From Opitutales bacterium (lineage in GTDB: Bacteria > Verrucomicrobiota > Verrucomicrobiia > Opitutales > PNEW01), in contig CBDANS010000007.1 in the NCBI GenBank assembly GCA_965197745.1, positions 768,001-832,000 on the forward strand: a stretch of DNA of 64,000 nucleotides, given 5' to 3'. The notes under the pieces were generated by a model. It worked only from the letters and a program-made list of their open reading frames with translations, was not told the origin of the DNA and did not search any database. Positions 5,965-54,606 of the stretch are shown piece by piece. The number at the start of each line of letters is the position of its first letter. Position 1 is the stretch's first letter. A program made the position numbers and the translations under genes.

Positions 5965-6970
5965 ATTTACAGGAAGATCGGGGAGGACGGGAAGAAAATT
6001 ATAGCCACAAAAAGCACAAAATGAGAGAGGGAATTGGCTGACAGATGTCGTCACGTTAAAGCAAGATGTACAATATATTTAACCACGAATGACACGGATA
6101 TCTAATATATATAAAGGAGTTGAATAGGGGATTAATGAGGAGTCTAAAGTCGAATGTCTAATGTCGAAAGTCGGAAAACGAAGAATTTTTACAGGAAGAT
6201 CCAGCCGTCGCCAAGGCTATGGCCTGGCAGGCGGGAAGAACGGGAAGAAAATAATAGCCACATTTCAGGAAGAGAATAAACCACGAATGGACGCGAATTA
6301 GCGCGGATTACCACGGATATTTTATATAGAGAAGAGTTAATTAGCCACCAACCGTCGTCCCGCGGTGGCGGGACTATGGTCGGCAAAGCAAGATGCACTA
6401 CCAGAGCACAGCGAGATTTTCTAATGACACAAGATACCTTCAGGTGAAAGTTAGTGCTTAATCGCAAAAGCTCAGCAGTAGCTGAGCTTCGGCTGTTCCT
6501 TACCGTTTTTTTAATTTTGATTTAAAAAACCGCGTAAAGGATTATCCGTATCAGTTCCGCTCGCGTGCGCGTGCGGGATGACTTTGCGATGAAGCATCGT
6601 ATTTCACCTTTTCTTAACTTCATGTATTTAAATCCGCGACATCTGCGTAATCCGCGTCTCCGCGACATCCGCGTAATCTGCGGTCAGATATTTCCGTCTT
6701 TCCCGCTTGCCACGCCATAGCTCACTAGAGCGACGGTGGGATCTTCCTGTAAAATCCCTCTCTTTTTTTGTGTCTCTTGCCTGCCGGTCATAGTCACGGC
6801 GTCAGTTGTTCATATCCGCGAAAGTATAAAAAAGGAATAATGATGTGTTATAAAGTGGAATCTCGGACGCAATCGGCCGTCGTCCTTACAAATACAGGAC
6901 TATGGCCGACAGGCACCATGCGTCCCTCCAGAAAAAGGAATATCGACTTTTGACATTAGACCTTCGACTT
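5965..6970. repeat. composite intergenic repeat region (7-, 9- and 10-mer arrays, hairpin micro-inserts, cloverleaf element, REP)
   Basis: caggaagat/cgggaag, agccacaaaaagcacaaaa and ccacgaat/cacggat arrays on the left, with their reverse complements on the right. Confidence 0.8.
6439..6609. repeat. ~175-bp structured element (MITE- or ncRNA-like), copy A
   Basis: ~35-bp imperfect terminal inverted repeat TTCAGGTGAAA..TGCTTAATCGCAAAAG; near-identical to 7988-8162 and 10623-10797. Confidence 0.8.
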
Positions 6971-7685: not shown

Positions 7686-7987
7686 TGTGACTAGGAGTCA
7701 AAGGTCGAAGGTCTAAAGTCGAAAGTCTGAAAAATGAAGATTTTTGCAAGACGGCCGGAAAGAAAAGAATAGCCACATTTCAGGAAGAGAATAAACCACG
7801 AATGGACACTAATTTACACGAATATTATTTAAAGGATGAGAAAGAAAGAGATAGCCACCAGCCGATGCCGAGGCTATGGCAGGCAGGCAAGAGGCACCTA
7901 CCGACTTCCCGCAGTGGCGGGACTATGGCCAGCAAAGCAAGATGCACTACTGGAGCACAGCGAGATTTTCCAATGACACAAGAAAAC

Positions 7988-8162
7988 TTCAGGTGAAATT
8001 TGGTGCTTAATCGCAAAAGCTCAGCAATAGCTGAGCTTCGGCTGTTCCTTATCGCTTTTTTTAAATTTTGATTTAAAAAACCGCGTACAGGAATATCCGT
8101 ATCAGTTCCGCTCGCGTAGCAGTGCGGATGACTTTGCGATGAAGCAACGTATTTCACCTGAA
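7988..8162. repeat. ~175-bp structured element, copy B
   Basis: TTCAGGTGAAA...TTTCACCTGAA with the same internal hairpins as copy A. Confidence 0.8.
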
Positions 8163-8238
8163 TTAAACCCAAAATTAGTATCCGCGATATTCGCGTCATC
8201 CGCGGTTAGATCTTTCTGCATTTTTCTTCTATGGTGCT

Positions 8239-8994: not shown

Positions 8995-9096
8995 ACTGGA
9001 TGTTAATTCGACCTCGGATACTGCTCATATATATGACCGTCCCTAATCAGGATCAAAGTTCTTAAAGATTTTAGATTAACGGGTTTCAGGTATTTC

Positions 9097-10107
9097 TCAA
9101 TAACGATTGGCCCATGACGTCACTAGAGTTTCATGTAAACGCGAATAAGGGTGTTTTTTTTCACCCTCTAGAGAAACCCTCTGTATTAATTGATATTGAG
9201 GTTTATGAAACCACCCAGTTGTTCCAAAGTGTAGATCTACGCTATTGTCTTCCAACATCATTTTATAATACTCATGGCTCACTCCCATATCAGAAAAAGG
9301 AAAAGCGAATATTCTGTGTTTTAACTGAAACTCTTCTTCTAAAAAGCGCATACTCTCACGGGTCTGTCTCAGTTGTTCATCGAGAGAAAGAATTGTATAA
9401 GGCGGATGATCTATGCTGTGCGCGCCAATGGCAAATCCATCATTTATTAATCCCGTTATCTGTTCTCTGTCCATGTACGGTTTAACTCGAGCCAGATATT
9501 CCGAGAAATTCAAGTCACATAAGTGAGCGATCTCATCCAGTAAATCTCTATGGTGATAATCAATACCCTTTAAGCTCTCTTTAAACTCGGTGTATAATAG
9601 ACCACGGGTTTTAAATTTATCCTTAACCGCATTTTGCAATATTTTACTTGAAGAGTTTAAATGTTGTTCAATGAGCAAGCTTACTTTGAAGCGATAGAAC
9701 AGATCTTTGTTTTCCCAAAAGCTGGAACTGATAAAAAAGGCTGCAGGTAAACCTTTCCTCTTAAGAATAGGGGCGACGATTTCTGACATTTCCCTAAGTC
9801 CATCATCAAAGGTAAGGAATACGCTACGGGATGGCGGAGGTTTTCCGCTCCTGCTATAATCCAGTATATCATCCAATGATATAGGACTGAATAATTTAAG
9901 AACACACTCGAGACTATCACAAAAATCTTTTACTCCCTTATACCTGTAAAGGTGCCGAATGTGGCCGAGGGGCTCATCACTTACAACGTGGTAATAAAGG
10001 ACTAATAGATTTCTACCGGTAACGCGTAAAAGTAGGCTTAGGGGCATGCAAGCACCCACACCCGTAATAGTTCGGTGCACCCCATTTTTCACTAACCGCT
10101 TTATCAT
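9097..10107 (-). CDS. polysaccharide deacetylase (NodB/CE4)
   Basis: LYYH, LTFDDG, IGAHSIDH and FAFPF motifs. Confidence 0.9.
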   Translation of the reverse strand: MIKRLVKNGVHRTITGVGACMPLSLLLRVTGRNLLVLYYHVVSDEPLGHIRHLYRYKGVKDFCDSLECVLKLFSPISLDDILDYSRSGKPPPSRSVFLTFDDGLREMSEIVAPILKRKGLPAAFFISSSFWENKDLFYRFKVSLLIEQHLNSSSKILQNAVKDKFKTRGLLYTEFKESLKGIDYHHRDLLDEIAHLCDLNFSEYLARVKPYMDREQITGLINDGFAIGAHSIDHPPYTILSLDEQLRQTRESMRFLEEEFQLKHRIFAFPFSDMGVSHEYYKMMLEDNSVDLHFGTTGWFHKPQYQLIQRVSLEGEKKHPYSRLHETLVTSWANRY

Positions 10108-10622
10108 CTATTACCGCTTCCTCTCTTACGCACAAAAAACAATAGTATTAACAGTTTATTGTGTAACCTTATGATCTCTATTAATATACCTACATATTGC
10201 AGTTTTTACCACTTCGAATTACGCCGGCCTCCGCCTCGACAGATATAGATCGTAACATTCTTTACCGAGCGATTGGGTCAGTTTTTGAGCTGAAGGACCG
10301 TCAGCCACGGGTAGGTGGAATATCATTTTTCGGGGGAGTGCATATGAGGAGTCAAAGGTCGAAATCTAGAATACAGGAATATTTTTTACAGGAAGAGCGG
10401 AAAGAATAGCCACATTTCAGGAAGAGAATTAACCACTAAAGGACACTAATTAATACAGATATCTAATTTTTTAACCACGAATGGACACGAATTTACACGG
10501 ATATTTTATATAGAGAAGAGTTAATTAGCCACCAACCGTCGTCCCGCGGTGGTGGGACTATGGTCGGCAAAGCAAGATGCACTACCAGAGCACAGCGAGA
10601 TTTTCTAATGACACAAGATAAC

Positions 10623-10797
10623 TTCAGGTGAAAGTTGGTGCTTAATCGCAAAAGCTCAGCAGTAGCTGAGCTTCGGCTGTTCCTTACCGTTTTTTTAAAT
10701 TTTGATTTAAAAAACCGCGTACAGGAATATCCGTATCAGTTCCGCTCGCGTGTGCGTGCGGGATGACTTTGCGATGAAGCAACGTATTTCATCTGAA
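10623..10797. repeat. ~175-bp structured element, copy C
   Basis: Same sequence as copies A and B; upstream flank 10496-10622 is also shared with 6312-6438. Confidence 0.8.
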
Positions 10798-11025
10798 TTA
10801 AACCCAAAATTAATATCCGCGATATTCGCGTCATCCGCGGTAAGATCTTGCTGTTTATTTTTGTGCCTCTTGCCTGCCGGTCATAGTCCCGCCACTGGGG
10901 GACGACGGTTGGTGCCTTTGAAAGATGTCGTCCCGGTGTCGCGGGACTCGGTAGTGGCTATCTTAAAAAAACCACAGCAGTGAATGTTACTGAAATAAAA
11001 GTTAAAGAATGGGCTATTTTAACTT

Positions 11026-11265
11026 TCAGCTTTCGACATTTGCCTCTTTAACTTCCTTCGGGGGATCTTTCCACTGAAATTCGGTGTTCCCGGGGATGCG
11101 GTCAGAGATATTCCAGGTTGCATGACCGCGTTTGACGGCTTCATTTTTAAAAAAGGCTAATTCCTTATGCGCCTCTTCCAAGGCGATGATTTTAAAATAA
11201 TAAGCGATAATGGACGCAATTAAACCAATTAAGCTAAGCACCATCGCTAGAAATACAAAGGCCAT
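11026..11265 (-). CDS. small membrane-anchored hypothetical protein
   Basis: ATG start, N-terminal hydrophobic helix, 79 aa. Confidence 0.55.
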   Translation of the reverse strand: MAFVFLAMVLSLIGLIASIIAYYFKIIALEEAHKELAFFKNEAVKRGHATWNISDRIPGNTEFQWKDPPKEVKEANVES

Positions 11266-11281
11266 GGGGGAAAAATCAGTA

Positions 11282-11445
11282 GATTTTTAGTGTTATGTTT
11301 TAGGTGTTAGGTATTAGGAAAGAGCAAATATTCAAAAAGTCAAAATGTAGCTTCGCAGTTTTAGCTGTAAGATTGAATCATAACAAAAATGTGAAATTCA
11401 AATTTTTCTTTAACTTAACACTTAAAACCTAACACTTAATACTGA
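11282..11445. repeat. gene-less inverted 7-mer array pair, family B (TAGGTGT/ACACCTA)
   Basis: tagtgttatgttttaggtgttaggtattagg ... acttaacacttaaaacctaacacttaatac; the first 23 bp are identical to 13773-13795. Confidence 0.85.
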
Positions 11446-11459
11446 AAATCGTTAGATTT

Positions 11460-12581
11460 TCATTCTTTTGACATAGAAATTTCTAATTTAGAAATTTCTA
11501 ATTCCTTCGTCATTCCTTCAAACCATTCTATGACCTCTGTATGTAAGGGTATTCCCTTAACGCGCCGCTCTTGCTCTTCTTCATGTTCCAGCATGCCGGG
11601 GTAAAGGACGCGTTCTTGGCCCGGTGCCGGTTTTGTTTCCCTGATCATCTTGAGCATGCGATCCATGTTATCTTTAAAGATATCGAGATCGGTGAATGCT
11701 TCGATGTCGTAGGCGACGAAATGATGTTTATGCGTCATACCCGGTTCACCCGGGGATGCGAGCATGCTGGGAATGGAACCTGCCAATATTGACCCGAGGA
11801 TTTCTGTTACCATCGCGAGCCCATAACCTTTATGGGAACCCTGCTCTCGCGTGCCGCCCAAGGGGAGTATATGTACAGGGATGCCATCCTTGAATTCAGG
11901 TACGCGAACGGCTTCCATTATGGGAACACCTTCGGCATCGGCAATCCAGCCTGGGTCCAGTTTTGACCCTATTCTGCGGGCGAGCTCAATTTTATTTCCG
12001 GCGACTGAGCAAGTCGCGGCGTCATATAGAAAAGGGGCTTCATTGCGTGTAGGTGCCGCGAGAGCAATGGGATTTGTGCCAAGCAGACCTTTTGAAGCAA
12101 AAGTTGGCACTACTTGTGTACCTGCAGCAGTCGTTACCAGACCTACCATATTGTTTTGAACCGCTTGCATGGCATGATGGCCGATGGCACCCGAATGGCC
12201 GCTGTTATAAACGGACACAGCACCGATGCCAACCTGCTTAGCTTTGTCGATCGCGATTTGCATCACATGACGACCAATAATGATGACTAAACCTCTATCC
12301 GCATCAATGGTCGCCGTTCCAGGCTTTTCACGCATAATCTTCCAATTGGCCTGCGCGTTGATATCTTTATTTTTATACTGCGTATGGTAAGCTCTCAGCA
12401 TATTAGATACACCGTGACTTTCCACTCCACGCAGGTCAGAAGTTACGAGCGTGTCTGCCGCGATTGCGGCATCTTCTGGAGTCTCACCCATCTTTTCAAA
12501 AAACTCCGTCACCGTTCGGCGTAATGATTCCTCCGGAACAATGACCTGTTCTTTTATCGGGACTTTGAAACGTTCTAGCAT
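11460..12581 (-). CDS. Ldh_2 family oxidoreductase (malate/L-lactate/ureidoglycolate dehydrogenase-like)
   Basis: SDLRGVESHG, SGHSGAIG, GTNPIA and GSHKGYGLA motifs. Confidence 0.92.
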   Translation of the reverse strand: MLERFKVPIKEQVIVPEESLRRTVTEFFEKMGETPEDAAIAADTLVTSDLRGVESHGVSNMLRAYHTQYKNKDINAQANWKIMREKPGTATIDADRGLVIIIGRHVMQIAIDKAKQVGIGAVSVYNSGHSGAIGHHAMQAVQNNMVGLVTTAAGTQVVPTFASKGLLGTNPIALAAPTRNEAPFLYDAATCSVAGNKIELARRIGSKLDPGWIADAEGVPIMEAVRVPEFKDGIPVHILPLGGTREQGSHKGYGLAMVTEILGSILAGSIPSMLASPGEPGMTHKHHFVAYDIEAFTDLDIFKDNMDRMLKMIRETKPAPGQERVLYPGMLEHEEEQERRVKGIPLHTEVIEWFEGMTKELEISKLEISMSKE

Positions 12582-12605
12582 AACTCAACAATGTTGAGTT
12601 ATGCG

Positions 12606-12749
12606 GTCGAAGGTCAAATGTCAAAGGTCAAAAGTGAAAAAATCTAAAGATTTTTTGTTTTAGGTGTAAGATGTTAAATTTTAAGTAAGATTTTTCATCA
12701 AAGCATAATTAGTAAATGTTCCGACCTTCGACTTTCGACTCTTTGACCT
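12606..12749. repeat. inverted 7-mer array pair, family A, enclosing a family-B array
   Basis: gtcgaag gtcaaat gtcaaag gtcaaaa ... taggtgtaagatgttaa ... ccgaccttcgactttcgactctttgacc. Confidence 0.8.
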
Positions 12750-12757
12750 TGTTATAC

Positions 12758-13717
12758 CTAGGTCAAAGATTTCAGTAATCGGTCCTCTTCCGTAAAATCC
12801 CAGGGTTCTTTGTCATAGCCCTGTTCCAGCCACCAATTGTAAGTCATTTCCAGACCCTCGCGAATGTTATAACGGGGTTCCCATTCCAGGTCGCGACGCG
12901 CTTTTTCGTTGCTGTAAACAGAGCTGACTCCCCATCCGAAAGGGAAGATTTCAACCTCCTGCTCTTCATAGTGAGCGGGATCGACGTGAATCACTTCCAC
13001 TTCCTTACTCATTATATCAGTCAGTGTTTGAATGTAAGCGTTAACCGTAATCATCTCATTTGAAGCGATGGTGTAGATCTGTCCCTCCGCCTGTTTTCGA
13101 TCGGGAACAGAGGCAAATGCAGCGGCCAGATCATCGACGTGGATAAAGTGAAGAAGTCGTTGACCGTCTCCCGGAATAATAATTTTACGACCGTGAGTGA
13201 GTCGGGCAAAAAACGTGTGCTCGCGTTGTTTCAGGTTATTGTGCGGCCCGTAAACATAGACCAACCTCAGAGAGGTTGTCGGCAGACCGCGCTCTTCGTA
13301 AACCTTTAAGAGATAATCTTCACAGGCAATCTTATCCCTGGCGTAGTCACTGGCTTCCGGTCTTCGGTCTAGAGTTGAATCTTCGAAGATCGGTCTGATT
13401 TCGGAGGGGGCATAGACGGAAGTTGAGCTGCAGAAAACATAAGTACCTATCTTCCCATCGAGAACATTGATGACAGTTTCAACCACGTCAGGTGTATAAC
13501 CCGAAATGTCATAGACGACATCAAAGGTCTTGCCATTCAATACCTCTGCGACCTGTTTCCTGTCATTGCGGTCGGCGATGAGACGATTGACCTTGCTGGG
13601 TATTTGCGCCTCGCTCTGGCCCCGATTCAAGATCGTTACCTCATGTCCCTGGTTAATTAAATAATCAACAAGGTGAAGCCCGACAAATTGTGTCCCCCCT
13701 AAGACTAGTGAATCCAT
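12758..13717 (-). CDS. NAD-dependent epimerase/dehydratase (atypical SDR)
   Basis: LVLGGTQFVG, NRG, SSTSVY and YARDK motifs; start set at MDSLV. Confidence 0.88.
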   Translation of the reverse strand: MDSLVLGGTQFVGLHLVDYLINQGHEVTILNRGQSEAQIPSKVNRLIADRNDRKQVAEVLNGKTFDVVYDISGYTPDVVETVINVLDGKIGTYVFCSSTSVYAPSEIRPIFEDSTLDRRPEASDYARDKIACEDYLLKVYEERGLPTTSLRLVYVYGPHNNLKQREHTFFARLTHGRKIIIPGDGQRLLHFIHVDDLAAAFASVPDRKQAEGQIYTIASNEMITVNAYIQTLTDIMSKEVEVIHVDPAHYEEQEVEIFPFGWGVSSVYSNEKARRDLEWEPRYNIREGLEMTYNWWLEQGYDKEPWDFTEEDRLLKSLT

Positions 13718-13790
13718 GGATTCACTAGTCAAAAAGTCAAAAGGTCAAAAAGTCAAAAAATAAAAATCCTTGGATTTTTAGTGTTATGTT

Positions 13791-14138
13791 TTAGGTTAGA
13801 GATTGAATTAATGCATGAAGTTTTCCTGATATCATTTTTGTTTCAGTAATTAATGCATTAGCTTCTTTAGATGGTATAAGGCCAATATTTTTAGCGATAA
13901 ATAATTGAGTTCGAACTTCAGCAGCTGAACCTTTAGCATAACCAAGAAATAATTTAAACTCATGTATCGAGTTTCTCTCAGCTCCCTCTGCAATATTTGA
14001 AGGTATCGAAACAGCTGCTCGCGATATTTGATCTCTAAATCCGTAATTACGTGAGTCTTTCAATTCGGAATATATACTTATAACTAAAGCACACGCTCTT
14101 TGCCAAACATCCAGTTCTTCGAATGATTGATAGGCCAT
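13791..14138 (-). CDS. four helix bundle protein (23S rRNA IVS protein family)
   Basis: SFEELDVWQRA...DQISRAAVSIPSNIAEGAER...FLGYAKGSAAEVRTQL. Confidence 0.93.
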   Translation of the reverse strand: MAYQSFEELDVWQRACALVISIYSELKDSRNYGFRDQISRAAVSIPSNIAEGAERNSIHEFKLFLGYAKGSAAEVRTQLFIAKNIGLIPSKEANALITETKMISGKLHALIQSLT

Positions 14139-14247
14139 GACTTAAGAGTTAAAGTGTATTTCTACGCGATTATCGGAAGAGATAACTAGATGATATAAAT
14201 CGACAGTTAATACCTGACGATTAATAGTGAAAAATAATATTATTTCT

Positions 14248-14280
14248 TCGACTTAACACCTAACACCTAAAACTTAACAC
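14248..14280. repeat. family-B 7-mer array flanking the four-helix-bundle gene
   Basis: acttaac acctaac acctaaa acttaac; inverted partner at 13773-13798. Confidence 0.8.
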
Positions 14281-14288
14281 AGCAATAT

Positions 14289-15872
14289 ATGTCTGAAATG
14301 TTAGACACATCTTCTCGAGGTCTTCACATTGTGGATTGGTTGTGCATTGCCCTCTACGCGGCTGTGGTTTTGGGAGTCGGGTGGATTTATTCGCGCAGGC
14401 ATTCGGACACGGGGAGTTATTTTGTTGGCAGCGGGAAGATGAATTCCTTTCTCATCGGTATTTCCATATTAGCAACGCTCTTAAGTTCCGCCTCTTTTTT
14501 AATGATTCCCGGTGAAATGATTAAAAATGGGCCGGTCATATTATGCTATCTCTTCGCGATACCTATCGCCTATGTCATCGTCGGTTACGTCTTGATCCCC
14601 GCCCTCATGCGTTACCGTGTGATCAGCGCTTACGAGATATTGGAAAAGAAGATGGGGGTAAAAATACGCCTGCTCGGTGCCAGCCTGTTTATCATGCTCA
14701 GGCTTACCTGGATGTCAGTCATTGTTTACTTCGCGGCAGAAGCGACAGTGGTAATCATCGGACTCGACCGATCAATGGTTCCCTGGGTTGTTCTGGTAAT
14801 TGGGATTGTCTCCGTAACTTATACCACCATGGGGGGATTACAGGCTGTAGTTATAACCGATCTTCTTCAATTCTGCATCCTATTTGGCGGTGCGATATTG
14901 ACCCTAACCATTATCAGTTTTCGTCTCGACGGTCTTCACTGGATTCCTACGGAGTGGTCACCTAATTGGGACGTACAACCATTCTTCAGCTTCGATCCAA
15001 CGGTGCGCGTGACGGTGGTTGGATCGATAATCTCATTTTTAATCTGGTTAATATGTATGGGAGGATCTGATCAGACGGTGATCCAAAGATATATGTGTAC
15101 CGAGGACGCCGCTACTGCTCGACGAGCCTACTTTCGAAATTCCCTCACAAATATGATAACCATTCCATTAATTGCTCTCGTGGGATTTGGGGTATTGGGA
15201 TTTTATATGCAGTACCAGGAGTATATTCCTGAAGGGGAGACCATTCAGTCCTATGCTGACAGACTCTTTCCACTATTTATATCAGAACATTTACCGATCG
15301 GTGTAGCCGGCCTCGTCGTTTCAGCATTATTCGCAGCCGGAATGTCGAGCATCGACTCAGGAATAAATTCAATAACAGCAGTCACGATGACAGACTTTTT
15401 AGATCGCTTTGGTCTTAAATCAAAAAGCGAGCGACAGCATTTGAGAATGGCCAGGTTCATAGCCATTGGCATCGGTGTCTTTGTCATGCTTGTGAGTATT
15501 CAAATGCATCGAGTGCCCGGCAACTTCGTAGAAATACCCCAGAAAACAATTAATCTTTTTACGGTGCCCATGTTCTGCCTGTTTTTCTTTGCTTTGTTTG
15601 TTCCGTTCGCCACTCCATTTGGCGTTGCCCTGGGTGCTCTCTATGGATGGGTGGCTGCGCTCCTCGTCGCCTACTGGGACATTTTCACTGGCCTCGACAG
15701 ACTAAGTTTCCAATTGATCATGTTTACGGCCCTCGTAGTAGACCTCTCTATCGGATGTCTATTCAGTCTCATTCCCATTAAGCATAACCCCCCCCCTGTG
15801 ATCGCCGTCTGGACGGTTATGGCACTTTCCCCGCTAATCGCGGGGATACTCACGCTCTTTTTCAGAGCGTGA
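14289..15872 (+). CDS. sodium:solute symporter (SSS)
   Basis: YFVGSG, YTTMGGLQAVVITD, DQTVIQRY and AAGMSSIDSGINS motifs; ~13 TM. Confidence 0.93.
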   Translation: MSEMLDTSSRGLHIVDWLCIALYAAVVLGVGWIYSRRHSDTGSYFVGSGKMNSFLIGISILATLLSSASFLMIPGEMIKNGPVILCYLFAIPIAYVIVGYVLIPALMRYRVISAYEILEKKMGVKIRLLGASLFIMLRLTWMSVIVYFAAEATVVIIGLDRSMVPWVVLVIGIVSVTYTTMGGLQAVVITDLLQFCILFGGAILTLTIISFRLDGLHWIPTEWSPNWDVQPFFSFDPTVRVTVVGSIISFLIWLICMGGSDQTVIQRYMCTEDAATARRAYFRNSLTNMITIPLIALVGFGVLGFYMQYQEYIPEGETIQSYADRLFPLFISEHLPIGVAGLVVSALFAAGMSSIDSGINSITAVTMTDFLDRFGLKSKSERQHLRMARFIAIGIGVFVMLVSIQMHRVPGNFVEIPQKTINLFTVPMFCLFFFALFVPFATPFGVALGALYGWVAALLVAYWDIFTGLDRLSFQLIMFTALVVDLSIGCLFSLIPIKHNPPPVIAVWTVMALSPLIAGILTLFFRA

Positions 15873-15877
15873 GTATT

Positions 15878-16079
15878 GTCAAAAAGTCAAGAAGATATGC
15901 GGTAAGGCGTAAATGCGATAAAGCGTGAATGCGGATTAATACCTGAGACATAATGCAGGATGCGAGGAGACCCTAGAGATTACCCCTTATTCGCATAAAC
16001 ACATATACGCGTATGAGGATGACGAGCTACGCTCTCGGTACGCACATACCCTTCGACATTTGACTTTCGACTTTCGACT
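15878..16079. repeat. nested inverted array element (family A, 8-mer, GATGCAG)
   Basis: gtcaaaaagtcaag...gcggtaaggcgtaaatgcgataaagcgtgaat...ccttcgacatttgactttcgactttcgac. Confidence 0.8.
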
Positions 16080-16093
16080 CCTTTAATAAATCC

Positions 16094-16972
16094 ATGATTA
16101 AAAGTAAAAACGGCTATCCAACTGCTGAAGAACTGATAGAAAAAGTGCGTGAGGTTGGCTATTGTCTGATTGAAGACATAATTCCTGAAGATAAGATTGA
16201 GCCGATCAAAAAAGAAATTTCTGACGCGGCTCACGCTAATTGCAGTGATTATGCGTCCGATAATATTACCCATATGTCAGGGACTATTAATCATACCCAG
16301 ATTTTCGCGGAATATGTCGCACACCCTCGTATCATGGCGTTGGTGGACACATTTTTTGGCCCCTATGCGCGTGTCTCCTCGACCACAACGACGATTAATG
16401 AACCGGGGAACAAGCGAGGTATGTGGCACTCCGATTGGCCGTTTAACCAGAGAAACGCGGGGCACATCCCGGTTCCCTATCCCGACATCATGCTTCACAT
16501 CACTTCTATCTGGATGCTGTCGGCATTCAGTAAAGAGAATGGAGGGACCTTAATTCGACCCGGTAGCCATAAACTCGATTATAACCCGAGCGTCGATTAT
16601 CCGGTAAATAAAGCGAAAACAGATGATAAGGAAGCGATGGCAAAAGGGTGGACGGAGGTTGCCTGTGATCCATTAGATGATGAAATAAATGCTACGGGAC
16701 CGGCGGGCAGTGTGCTCTTCTTTGACAGTCGCTTATGGCATGCCACCGCGCCCAACACTTCCAGTGATCCAAGGGTAGCGTTGATCGTGCGTTATGCTCC
16801 CTGGTGGATAAATCTTAAATCCTGGCGGCCCGGTTCGATTGATCGGAAAATAATTTCTGAAGAACCCGGCATATTTGAAAACGTGCTCGCGCCACTTCCC
16901 ATCGATGTCTATAATCGGCTACCCGAAGTCACCAAACCCCTTTTCCGGCATTGGGTAGAGGAAAACGCGTAG
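16094..16972 (+). CDS. phytanoyl-CoA dioxygenase family (Fe/2OG)
   Basis: WHSD, GGTLIRPGSH, GSVLFFDSRLWH and PR motifs. Confidence 0.9.
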   Translation: MIKSKNGYPTAEELIEKVREVGYCLIEDIIPEDKIEPIKKEISDAAHANCSDYASDNITHMSGTINHTQIFAEYVAHPRIMALVDTFFGPYARVSSTTTTINEPGNKRGMWHSDWPFNQRNAGHIPVPYPDIMLHITSIWMLSAFSKENGGTLIRPGSHKLDYNPSVDYPVNKAKTDDKEAMAKGWTEVACDPLDDEINATGPAGSVLFFDSRLWHATAPNTSSDPRVALIVRYAPWWINLKSWRPGSIDRKIISEEPGIFENVLAPLPIDVYNRLPEVTKPLFRHWVEENA

Positions 16973-16979
16973 CGTTTTC

Positions 16980-17191
16980 GTCGAAAGTCGAAGGTCAAAG
17001 GTCGAAAGCGAAAATCGTTATTCTGGAGGGACGCGCTCTGTCGCGTCCGCTTAAAAATCAGGTGTATTTATTTTTCGATATTATAAATGATGATTATAGC
17101 CACAACGGCGTGTGGCCCTCCAATTTATTTTCTTCGCTAAAAATTGTATCAGCATCATTCTACCTTTGACATTAGACCTTAGACTTTCGAC
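16980..17191. repeat. family-A inverted arrays enclosing an inverted REP pair
   Basis: gtcgaaagtcgaaggtcaaaggtcgaaag; REP ggagggacgcgctctgtcgcgtccg (17025) and inverted REP (~17098-17121); tttgacattagaccttagactttcgac. Confidence 0.8.
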
Positions 17192-18202: not shown

Positions 18203-18369
18203 TGTGTTAGGTTTTAGGTGTTAAGTGTTAGGTTGAAGGGTGTGTACATGGGCCTCCATTTATTTATTAATCAAACTATTCCCGCGTTCCCGCATTTACG
18301 CGTTTTCGCATCATCGCATATCCCCATCTCCCATTACTTTTGACTTTTTGACCTTTTGACCTTTTGACT
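18203..18369. repeat. mixed array element (family-B left arm, 8-mer and family-A right arm)
   Basis: gtgttaggttttaggtgttaagtgttagg ... ttcccgcgttcccgcatttacgcg ... ttttgactttttgaccttttgaccttttgac. Confidence 0.75.
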
Positions 18370-20589: not shown

Positions 20590-20716
20590 AAAGTTGGTTG
20601 ATGCATGATGCAGGATGCGGGATACAAAGTAATATAACCGCTTATACGCATATTCGCATTTTCCCATACACGCATGTCCCCATATACCTTTGACTTTTGA
20701 CCTTCGACATTAGACT
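20590..20716. repeat. array element (GATGCAG, 8-mer, family-A right arm)
   Basis: gatgcatgatgcaggatgcgggatac ... taaccgcttatacgcatattcgcat ... tttgacttttgaccttcgacattagac. Confidence 0.75.
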
Positions 20717-21513: not shown

Positions 21514-21696
21514 AAGTCGAAAGTCTAAGGTCAAAGGTCGAAAGCGGAAGGAGGGTTGAGGAAATGTGTATACGCGGTAAAGCGTGAATGTGAATTGATA
21601 CAGTATAATCTAACCGCTTATCCCCATTATCGCTTTTACGCGTCTACGCATTATCGCATATACCTTTTGACTTTTTGACCTTTTGACTTTTTGACT
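21514..21696. repeat. nested inverted array element (family A, 8-mer)
   Basis: agtcgaaagtctaaggtcaaaggtcgaaag ... ttttgactttttgaccttttgactttttgac; right half closely matches 36299-36359. Confidence 0.85.
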
Positions 21697-37102: not shown

Positions 37103-37161
37103 TATTTGTCAAAAGTCTAATGTCGAAAGTCTAATGTCGACTCTAATAGAACTGACGAGCA

Positions 37162-37560
37162 TTAGGAATCTACATCGGCTCTTGAATTCGACATATCTTG
37201 TTTAATATGGCGCATAAGCGCGGCAATACCTTTTGAGATATTTCTACTAGCTTCTCTTAAGTCTACTGCGTCCTTTTCTAATAAATATTTAAGGTCTTCC
37301 GCAATATAGAGCATATTCCTCAATTCCCCGCAGGACCCCTTTGCGATACTAAGATAATGATAGAACTCAGCGTCTCCTTTTCTTTCATAACCTTCCGAAA
37401 TATTATTCATTACAGACACACTAGATCTTTGAATCTGATTTTTAAAGCCAAAGTCTTTTGCTGCTGGCGTTGTATCACCAAACACAGTATAAATGGTCGC
37501 GACTAAGGTTCTTGCGTCTTGCCAGATTCTCAGATCTTCAAAAGATTTTACTGAGTTCAT
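37162..37560 (-). CDS. four helix bundle protein (23S rRNA IVS protein family)
   Basis: SFEDLRIWQDAR...NQIQRSSVSVMNNISEGYER...YLSIAKGSCGELRNML. Confidence 0.93.
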   Translation of the reverse strand: MNSVKSFEDLRIWQDARTLVATIYTVFGDTTPAAKDFGFKNQIQRSSVSVMNNISEGYERKGDAEFYHYLSIAKGSCGELRNMLYIAEDLKYLLEKDAVDLREASRNISKGIAALMRHIKQDMSNSRADVDS

Positions 37561-37648
37561 ATTTATCTTAAAGGTTGATGTTGGAAGAATGAGATCTTTA
37601 TAAAATTTAATTCGGTATTAAACACATGACACTTAATATTAATTATTT

Positions 37649-37718
37649 TACCTTCGACTTTCGACCTTTGACTAATCACCTTTGACTTTTCGACCTTCGA
37701 CTTTCGGCTCTCACCTTT
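37649..37718. repeat. family-A 7-mer array flanking the four-helix-bundle gene
   Basis: cttcgac tttcgac ctttgac ... ttttgac ttttcgac cttcgac tttcggc; inverted partner gtcaaaa gtctaat gtcgaaa gtctaat gtcgac at 37107-37143. Confidence 0.85.
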
Positions 37719-37723
37719 CACAG

Positions 37724-53910: not shown

Positions 53911-54606
53911 ATGGACAAAAATTCTATACCCAAAGTAGTCGAGGATCTACGCGGATACGACAGCGCAACCATTTCTAATGCTATCGAACATTTCGAGGTA
54001 CGGGATCCCACGATGGGCTTTGCCAATAATGAATTGATCTGTCAGTTTCCTGAAATCGGTACACCGATGGTCGGCTACGCGCTTACCGCGACAGCCGATT
54101 CCACTACACCCGGCGACAAAAGAACGTCACGAGTAGACGATCTTGCTGGCCATATCGATGCGGCACCCAATCCTGTCATCCTCGTAGTACAGCATGTCGG
54201 ACATGATCGCAAACGCTGCTGTTTATTTGGGGACATGTTTTGCACCTTTGCTGAAAGGCTTGGCATGGTTGGGGTCGTTACCGATGCCAATTGCCGAGAC
54301 CGAACAGCGATCCGCAAGCGCACACCTGATTTCCATGTATTTTCTGCTGGATGGGTTGTATCACACGGATACGGCGCCTTCCTCGACTTCAACGTTAATA
54401 TTGAAGTCGGAGGACTGACCGTTGCCCCAGGTGACCTGTTGCACGGTGATGAGAGTGGGCTGGTCTCTGTCCCAAAAGACATCGCCGATGATGTTGCAAA
54501 ACGTGCAAAGGACGTCCTTCAGGAAGAAGCCGATTTCTTTAAATTTTTGAAAAGCGATGAATTTACCCTGGAAAAACTCCAGCGTCGAGTTATCCCGCAT
54601 GATTGA
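53911..54606 (+). CDS. RraA family / HMG aldolase-like protein
   Basis: DSATISNAIE, FGD, GVVTD..CRD and PGDLLHGDESG motifs. Confidence 0.88.
   Translation: MDKNSIPKVVEDLRGYDSATISNAIEHFEVRDPTMGFANNELICQFPEIGTPMVGYALTATADSTTPGDKRTSRVDDLAGHIDAAPNPVILVVQHVGHDRKRCCLFGDMFCTFAERLGMVGVVTDANCRDRTAIRKRTPDFHVFSAGWVVSHGYGAFLDFNVNIEVGGLTVAPGDLLHGDESGLVSVPKDIADDVAKRAKDVLQEEADFFKFLKSDEFTLEKLQRRVIPHD

Follow-up and report, generated by a model that had tools for sequence, protein, structure and literature searches.

A four-helix-bundle gene and its inverted heptamer arms form a relocating, nesting cassette in an Opitutales genome and its relatives

Introduction

Among the closest described counterparts of the locus reported here is Coxiella burnetii's ORF-bearing 23S rRNA intervening sequence (IVS). 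This element encodes S23p, a protein of the same family, its terminal inverted repeats form a stem (28 bp), up to four heptamers that begin with G precede the ORF, and it has been called selfish (PMC4990558). In the accessible part of that paper, the protein is not linked to the repeats. Another member of the family, Xcc0516, is a homopentamer (PMC4990558). A likeness between PF05635 and Avd, the accessory protein of diversity-generating retroelements (DGRs), has been noted (PMC10053308), and PF05635-type genes have been listed as strain-specific (PMC8700078). Avd is a pentamer that protects ~30 nt of RNA in a sequence-dependent manner (PMC6182149), with flipped bases held in crevices between all five subunits (10.1101/2023.10.23.563531).

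Heptamer repeats between genes have been described elsewhere. The GGGAATC repeats of Xanthomonas, mostly of four units, occur ~185 times per genome, intergenically and with 70–75 convergent inverted pairs; they lie 28 nt from one neighbouring gene and 160 nt from the other, and were interpreted as G-quadruplex formers (PMC4692102). The consulted text of that paper makes no mention of Xcc0516, S23 or a helix bundle. In Beggiatoaceae, intergenic runs of TAACTGA lie near start codons in ~170 sets; they are regarded as direct repeats with a possible translational role, and the accessible part of the source leaves the PF05635 family unmentioned (PMC4679880). Our search of the literature, largely open-access, found no paper that describes gene-plus-arm cassettes outside rRNA. 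In REP/REPIN elements with RAYT, and in MITEs, one master gene is accompanied by many gene-less palindromic copies between genes. As far as the parts of these sources that we could consult go, three topics stand in print without a link: what S23p/PF05635 does, heptamer arrays of four units at the junctions of genes, and where Avd comes from.

Here, we analyse a four-helix-bundle gene in an Opitutales genome, within a stretch of 64,000 nt that we call the window. An earlier note on this DNA had proposed that the gene and its flanking arrays form a small mobile or repeat-propagating unit, an interpretation that our results partly support.

Materials and Methods

The genome of the window (G000, 4.45 Mb) was compared with three relatives (G001, G002 and G003, the last an assembly that is 82% complete), and in some searches with a further genome, G100. 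A family array, or arm, contains at least three repeat units, and the block-shuffled genome served as the null model for arrays. The tree comprised 60 rows, namely 40 proteins from three genomes and 20 of the best homologous loci, and 117 columns. Contig joints in four runs, which rest on sides shorter than 32 letters inside repeats, were excluded.

Results

Organisation of the cassette

The features of the window to which we refer are the following.

11271..11472, no strand: gene-less twin, with cap 11271-11288, arm 11290-11318, a 97-nt loop, arm 11415-11442 and cap 11443-11462
12606..12750, no strand: third bracket, made of GTC[A/G/T]AA arms and a cap, which encloses a single worn arm of B type (12638-12686)
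13703..13730, no strand: perfect palindrome of 28 bp whose centre is the epimerase start codon; it abuts the outer arm
13728..13759, plus strand: outer arm of another family, four 8-mer GTCAAAA[A/G] units, with the group-B cassette nested inside
13762..13779, no strand: cap hairpin with a 7-bp stem and a 4-nt loop, directly outside the downstream arm
13781..13795, plus strand: downstream arm, worn, two units and a G, overlapping the stop codon of the gene
13791..14138, minus strand: four-helix-bundle gene (PF05635/TIGR02436) of group B, 115 aa, from ORF, profiles and model
14252..14280, minus strand: upstream arm, four GT[G/T]TTA[A/G] units followed by one more G, which makes five in-phase Gs; the symporter start codon is 8 nt away
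14289..15872, plus strand: sodium:solute symporter gene
15878..16079, no strand: remainder of the outer bracket, with worn arms behind the symporter and an inverted GTC[A/G/T]AA arm (16052-16079) before phyH
37108..37721, minus strand: second four-helix-bundle cassette, of group A, with GTC[A/G/T]AA arms; profile match 37225-37539

The gene had been said to lie between inverted arrays of its own. This holds for the inverted GT[G/T]TTA[A/G] arms, of which the upstream one is complete, but the downstream one is worn to two units and a G; it has four units in the G001 and G002 orthologues. The array at 13728-13759, taken earlier as part of the same bracket, belongs to a different family. Its partner is likely the arm at 16052-16079, beyond the symporter gene, and the cognate gene of these outer arms is the group-A gene at 37108-37721. 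The window contains two proteins with different arms, a ready-made pair of cognate and non-cognate partners. The 28-bp palindrome next to the outer arm is identical in G001, while G002 and G003 have a different hairpin in its place. As a contig from another run covers 13730-15168 with zero differences, the symporter-gene junction is unlikely to be an assembly artefact. The symporter has its closest match at a different site in G003 and just a 64% paralogue in G001 and G002, so that it may be cargo in the bracket.

The gene-less twin was confirmed. The 23-mer at 11282-11304 is identical to 13773-13795, at the downstream end of the gene, as had been noticed; the shared run extends to 24 bp and occurs just twice in the 4.45-Mb genome. 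The twin has its left end in common with the 13791-14138 cassette, its right end is nearly identical to the end of a full cassette in G002, and it finishes with a remnant of an outer arm (11463-11472). Both units are predicted to fold: the group-B gene cassette pairs its two arms (z -2.8 over 20 shuffles), and the twin reaches z -3.5. The twin is not the sole empty copy, however. The genome contains 71 family-B arms and 18 inward pairs for one gene, and in the window the one-armed copy at 12638-12686 is a third; the bracket around it (12606-12750) occurs, in one contig from a different run, as a variant with two units (14 nt) inserted. The proposal that empty brackets are derivatives of the gene-bearing unit suits the twin, which shares its ends with full cassettes, but among the 18 family-B pairs are 7 whose loops are very short, 10-11 nt in six and 17 nt in one, and these may propagate as compact hairpins.

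Further repeats lie nearby. Arms of an 8-mer ATGCG type (family K), at ~15895-15935, 18290-18345, 20625-20685 and 21560-21660, often form the inner layer of GTC-type brackets, and their cognate gene is likely G000:C6:20093. Runs of a ~10-mer of the CCACGAATGGAC type and GC-rich REP-like palindromes occupy 10429-10509, 10527-10569, 10623-10652, 10768-10797 and 10875-10948, and recur near 6190-6470 and 7800-8200. The genome also contains GxxExxY genes, which may be linked to such runs.

The protein

In profile searches, the product of 13791-14138 matches PF05635 with an E-value of 7e-32. It scores 110 bits against a curated cut-off of 33.8 for PF05635 and 108 against 24 for TIGR02436, and also exceeds the cut-off of NF008912. 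Its predicted structure is a four-helix bundle (pLDDT 95.8) with an Xcc0516-like fold (E 2e-18). The nearest folds to the model are 2GSC, 2RLD and Avd, and the proteins that it matches are Xcc0516, BT_0352 and Avd; the TM-score is 0.91 (rmsd 1.6) to Xcc0516 (2GSC) and 0.77 to Avd (4DWL), and the likeness to Avd pointed out earlier is supported by the modelled structure. By analogy with 2GSC, which has five chains (PMC4990558), the product is probably a homopentamer. With dN/dS values against orthologues of 0.08 and 0.15 (a third pair is saturated), the gene is under purifying selection. No sigma-70 promoter match was found on its strand.

The earlier note had also stated that the unit lacks a transposase. 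The only ORF inside the group-B cassette is indeed the 115-aa bundle, and none of its content is a transposase, but Y1 genes in four of the five genomes could act in trans. Reverse transcriptase (PF00078) was found in 0/5 genomes (82-96% complete), which speaks against a retro-element. The same absence would suit a protein that is itself the enzyme, with conserved acidic and amide residues making up a metal-binding site, of nuclease or strand-transfer type, with which it would cut at the arms: Gln37 and Glu74 are the sole residues invariant across all 40 proteins (40/40), and Glu51 is conserved in 36/40. We consider such an enzyme very improbable, as the closest folds (2GSC, 2RLD and Avd) come without a reported activity in the sources consulted, Avd is an accessory RNA-binding subunit and the junctions show no constant target duplication.

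Five Gs per arm

Four units are the mode of arm length in families A (27/40), B (44/71) and C (12/18). The base that follows the four units is G in 42/44 arms of B, 27/27 of A and 9/12 of C, whereas the base one unit before them is G in 4/44, 8/27 and 4/12. What would be a fifth unit of the B arms ceases to match, with T at the fourth place in 1/44. Outside the phylum, the four-unit length was found in 65 of 102 arms, and in these G follows the units in 64/65 and precedes them in 21/65; the sharp cap after the fifth G was not seen in other taxa. As arms consist mostly of four units and one G, an arm amounts to five in-phase Gs at 7-nt spacing, in 29 nt.

By analogy with 2GSC and Avd, the five Gs would match the five subunits of a homopentamer, and the length of the arm would match the ~30-nt RNA footprint of Avd. 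Gln37 and Glu74 may be the residues that read the G. A code from amino acid to base within group B was considered and rejected: its best candidate, residue 66 (His in 26/36 with A; Arg in 3 and Asn in 2 of 5 with C), is weak and confounded by kinship.

Arms across the genome

Period 7 is conspicuous in the genome of the window, which contains 170 such arrays at a score of at least 11, of which 165 lie outside ORF calls. The eight arm families, patterns that we defined ourselves from this list after viewing the data, comprise 201 arms, as opposed to none in the block-shuffled genome, and 198 of the 201 are intergenic. Pairs of arms face inward in 26 cases and outward in 2, and 18 of 39 brackets combine arms of different families. 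PF05635 has 14 matches at 12 loci, two of which are split. An automatic rule found 7/12 of these loci bracketed, and 0/3670 other ORFs, so that arms accompany these genes far more than random genes, as the earlier note had supposed; by eye, three more are bracketed, and two loci with 6-mers are not clearly so.

These counts refute the idea that the arrays are slippage microsatellites of AT-rich gaps that lie beside the gene by chance, to which we give next to no credence. Variants in unit number do exist, some arrays extend to 13-18 units, and the long runs of family E qualify as microsatellites by a slippage criterion by which family B does not. Against this stand the empty shuffled genome, the inward excess of pairs, the lack of bracketed ORFs of other kinds and the occurrence of the same family beside homologues in many phyla, and neighbouring units differ more than chance predicts. 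In family B, adjacent units are identical in 7/195 cases, where 35.9 are expected, and 37 of 44 four-unit arms are distinct strings. This diversity together with the avoidance of identical neighbours indicates that the B arms are not slippage runs, and not copies of a single master either. Families E, F and G lack the avoidance, which was not seen in other taxa either (120/331 identical neighbours).

Hairpins of at least 6 bp abut 20/71 B arms and 16/2413 control gene ends; with paralogous flanks removed, the count is 10/35. Some of these hairpins are a constant cap and others an inverted copy of the end of the host gene, and at one stop codon they track each genome's own gene-end sequence. 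These hairpins fit template switching at the ends of arms, but families C-G and other taxa lack them. As a general signature, junction hairpins were accordingly dropped (2/77 arms in other taxa, 0/71 in families C-G).

Several observations stand apart from these. The region G000:C7:600000-1000000, around both four-helix genes of the window, is enriched in arms (55/198). Forty paralogous ORFs on C4-C7, mostly of ~740 aa with an apparent signal peptide and a C-terminal TPQPT...EEITIE, are often followed by a hairpin at the stop codon and then a family-B arm. Arms cluster near their cognate gene in families A and E, whereas B, C, D, F and G show no such clustering; local spreading from the cognate gene was discarded as a rule. 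Nor are paired arms more or less complementary than chance (6/62 identical units, 10.0 after permutation, P 0.10).

Repeat family and protein group

Period-7 arrays also accompany homologues in many phyla. Of the best 79 of the 464 homologous loci found, 59 have arrays upstream (one of these is a run of N), 57 have them downstream and 50 have them on both sides, as opposed to 4/74 and 6/70 control windows. Two-sided cases are inverted in 45/58. Judged by their units, most of the loci have the same arm family. That repeat family follows protein group, which the earlier note had proposed to test, is supported by the tree, in which 12 repeat labels require 11 changes, the minimum, over 41 labelled rows of 60; the other 19 are unlabelled, the labels were drawn up once the data had been viewed, long branches meet, group B has A and K nested within it, and related sequences are not independent. 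On the same tree, the host label requires 22 changes over 40 rows. Each labelled arm family maps to one protein group.

In a survey of 300 genomes of the phylum, the four-unit motif was found in 7/16 genomes with a close protein (at least 145 bits, our own threshold) and in 15/284 without one, with the reservation that related genomes are not independent. The strict motif is absent from 9/16 close-protein genomes, and 2/7 arm-rich genomes have no close protein. When the scan started from the pattern, gene-less arms dominated: the metagenome part covered 80 of at least 122 stretches, some matches being long perfect runs of other origin, and a gene lay just inside the arm at 4/66 metagenome and 0/65 viral loci, a gene outside it at 0/66 and 0/72, and an inverted partner inside at 17/66 and 6/65.

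Movement among related genomes

The gene and its inverted arms behave as one unit that changes place, nests in other such cassettes and leaves gene-less hairpins behind. Mobility, which had been proposed from the window alone, is borne out by the group-B orthologues, found at three junctions in three related genomes. The epimerase-phyH junction, which the cassette and the symporter occupy in G000, has just a ~200-bp bracket in G001 and G002, with neither the group-B gene nor the symporter. The G001 orthologue (82% aa identity) lies at the twin's junction, reversed, where it replaces the middle of a group-A gene, so that it is nested and its host gene is broken; the G002 orthologue (83%) is ~200 kb away. 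The dS of the group-B gene (0.8 and 1.8) is of the same order as that of four neighbours (0.5-1.2), which fits relocation better than recent import. At orthologous junctions of G000, G001 and G002, brackets are kept and families are exchanged, and arms persist at the same junctions across two genera. In G003, no four-helix genes were found, and 2 motif matches compare with 69, 99 and 122 elsewhere; only decayed traces are left.

Other cassettes give comparable pictures. The four-helix cassette at G000:C7:619795-620360 (outside the window) has GATTGTC-type arms. On either side of it the 3' end of tRNA-Ser(CGA) is found as a 25-bp direct repeat, and a similar tRNA fragment follows a relative's copy (L053). 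At G000:C6:1083800-1084330, a four-helix cassette with GAATTA arms lies between genes that we presume to be atpG and atpD; its site is also filled in G002 and holds a broken copy in G001. The G001 and G002 junctions after akr and near window position 54606 (L021/L022) contain extra inserts of 1.3-1.9 kb inside brackets, one with a group-A four-helix gene and one that we take for a transposase fragment. A target-site duplication was not evident at the group-B locus and its orthologues, and the 25-bp tRNA-end repeat occurs at 1/12 loci.

This repeat is among the features that recall a MITE- or REP-like element mobilised in trans by a separate enzyme, such as a HUH protein of the Y1/RAYT type, with the bundle either lending specificity as an adaptor or being a passenger. 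The cap hairpins at the ends of arms, which have 4-nt loops, and the recurrence of compact hairpins point the same way, and Y1 matches were found in G000, G001, G002 and G100 but not in G003, which also nearly lacks arms. Yet Y1 is present in 6/14 control genomes as well, and G003 is incomplete. The four-unit B arms are mostly distinct, as copies of a master would not be, other taxa do not generally show caps, and arm sequence follows the four-helix protein group. We regard mobilisation by a separate enzyme as rather unlikely.

A second alternative starts from the position of the arms relative to genes. The median distance to a gene end is 24 nt for the outer end of an arm and 180 nt for the inner end; the outer end lies within 40 nt in 121/197 arms, 80 at stops and 41 at starts, and the inner end in 12. 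TRAP offers an analogy for a ring that binds mRNA. In a domesticated RNA regulon, rings of the bundle protein would bind arms in mRNA and, by toggling the stem, adjust translation, termination or cleavage by RNase III at ~200 junctions; autoregulation would be the role of the arms beside the gene itself, and relocation would be a by-product of recombination between repeats. The closeness to gene ends, the fixed arm length, the purifying selection and the predicted stems of cassette and twin all agree with this, and the stem of the Coxiella IVS is cleaved by RNase III (PMC4990558). Both the persistence of arms at junctions and the purifying selection are likewise predicted by a host function. 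However, the same junction has different families in G000, G001 and G002, brackets are often mixed, and convergent and divergent junctions have arms as well. One cassette was destroyed when another became nested in it, the 3' end of a tRNA is duplicated at one copy, and the system is nearly lost in G003. Overall, a regulon seems doubtful, though it is the more plausible of these two alternatives.

Discussion

A proposed protein-recognised hairpin cassette

We somewhat favour a hairpin cassette that is recognised by its own protein and moved by template switching of the host, with no transposase. The absence of reverse transcriptase, the diversity of the B arms and the hairpin evidence together favour a ring that reads without catalysis over the alternatives. 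Judging from its homologues, each crevice between subunits would take one G of the single-stranded G-rich strand, so that one pentamer ring would cover one 29-nt arm. The invariant Gln37 and Glu74 are candidates for a shared G pocket, and variable residues may read the rest of the unit. In the least certain step, the bound ring would act as a sequence-specific annealing chaperone with no catalysis of its own. By holding arms open or joining two of them, it could cause host replication or repair to switch template there, which would copy, swap or delete the DNA between arms. In trans, dozens of empty arms could then be served by a single gene per family. Insertions would survive only at junctions between genes, where the transcript would fold the unit out into a stem in the manner of 23S intervening sequences.

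A wider claim, which we put forward more tentatively, is that such units represent a widespread class of mobile DNA. Its only gene would encode a programmable five-pocket ring that reads a five-G arm and drives copying or exchange through template switching by the host, without any transposase, integrase or reverse transcriptase. This class could be the source of the excess of 7-base repeats in many bacteria and of ORF-bearing rRNA intervening sequences, and likely the origin of Avd. If the ring moves arms, DNA would spread here in a way that is new; if binding is all that it does, it would be a modular sequence-reading protein with many natural specificities. In either case, the group-B locus ties together the three topics named in the Introduction, through a number that can be tested: five Gs at 7-nt spacing and five subunits.

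Comparison with known systems

The group-B cassette is built like an ORF-bearing 23S intervening sequence, yet it is not one, nor is it a DGR. Unlike the Coxiella element, it lies between epimerase and symporter genes and not in rRNA, and here there are many families per genome, gene-less copies, nesting and relocation. With Avd it shares the fold and presumably the pentamer. Identity to Avd is however 13%, and the site here is a periodic repeat that flanks the gene itself. A template and variable repeat pair of a DGR was sought, and no long near-identical pair was seen among the 20 largest direct-repeat families in 9000-17000. The Xanthomonas repeats resemble the arms in their usual four units, intergenic position, inverted pairing and distances to the two neighbouring genes, and a species with GGGAATC repeats also encodes Xcc0516; unlike them, the arms in G000 have no G tracts. 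As in REP/REPIN elements with RAYT and in MITEs, there is one master gene and many gene-less copies, but this master gene is not a transposase, its arms are degenerate tandem units and no constant target duplication accompanies them. The contribution of this locus is that the twin's site is filled in a relative, that one cassette nests in another and that the arms mostly count five Gs.
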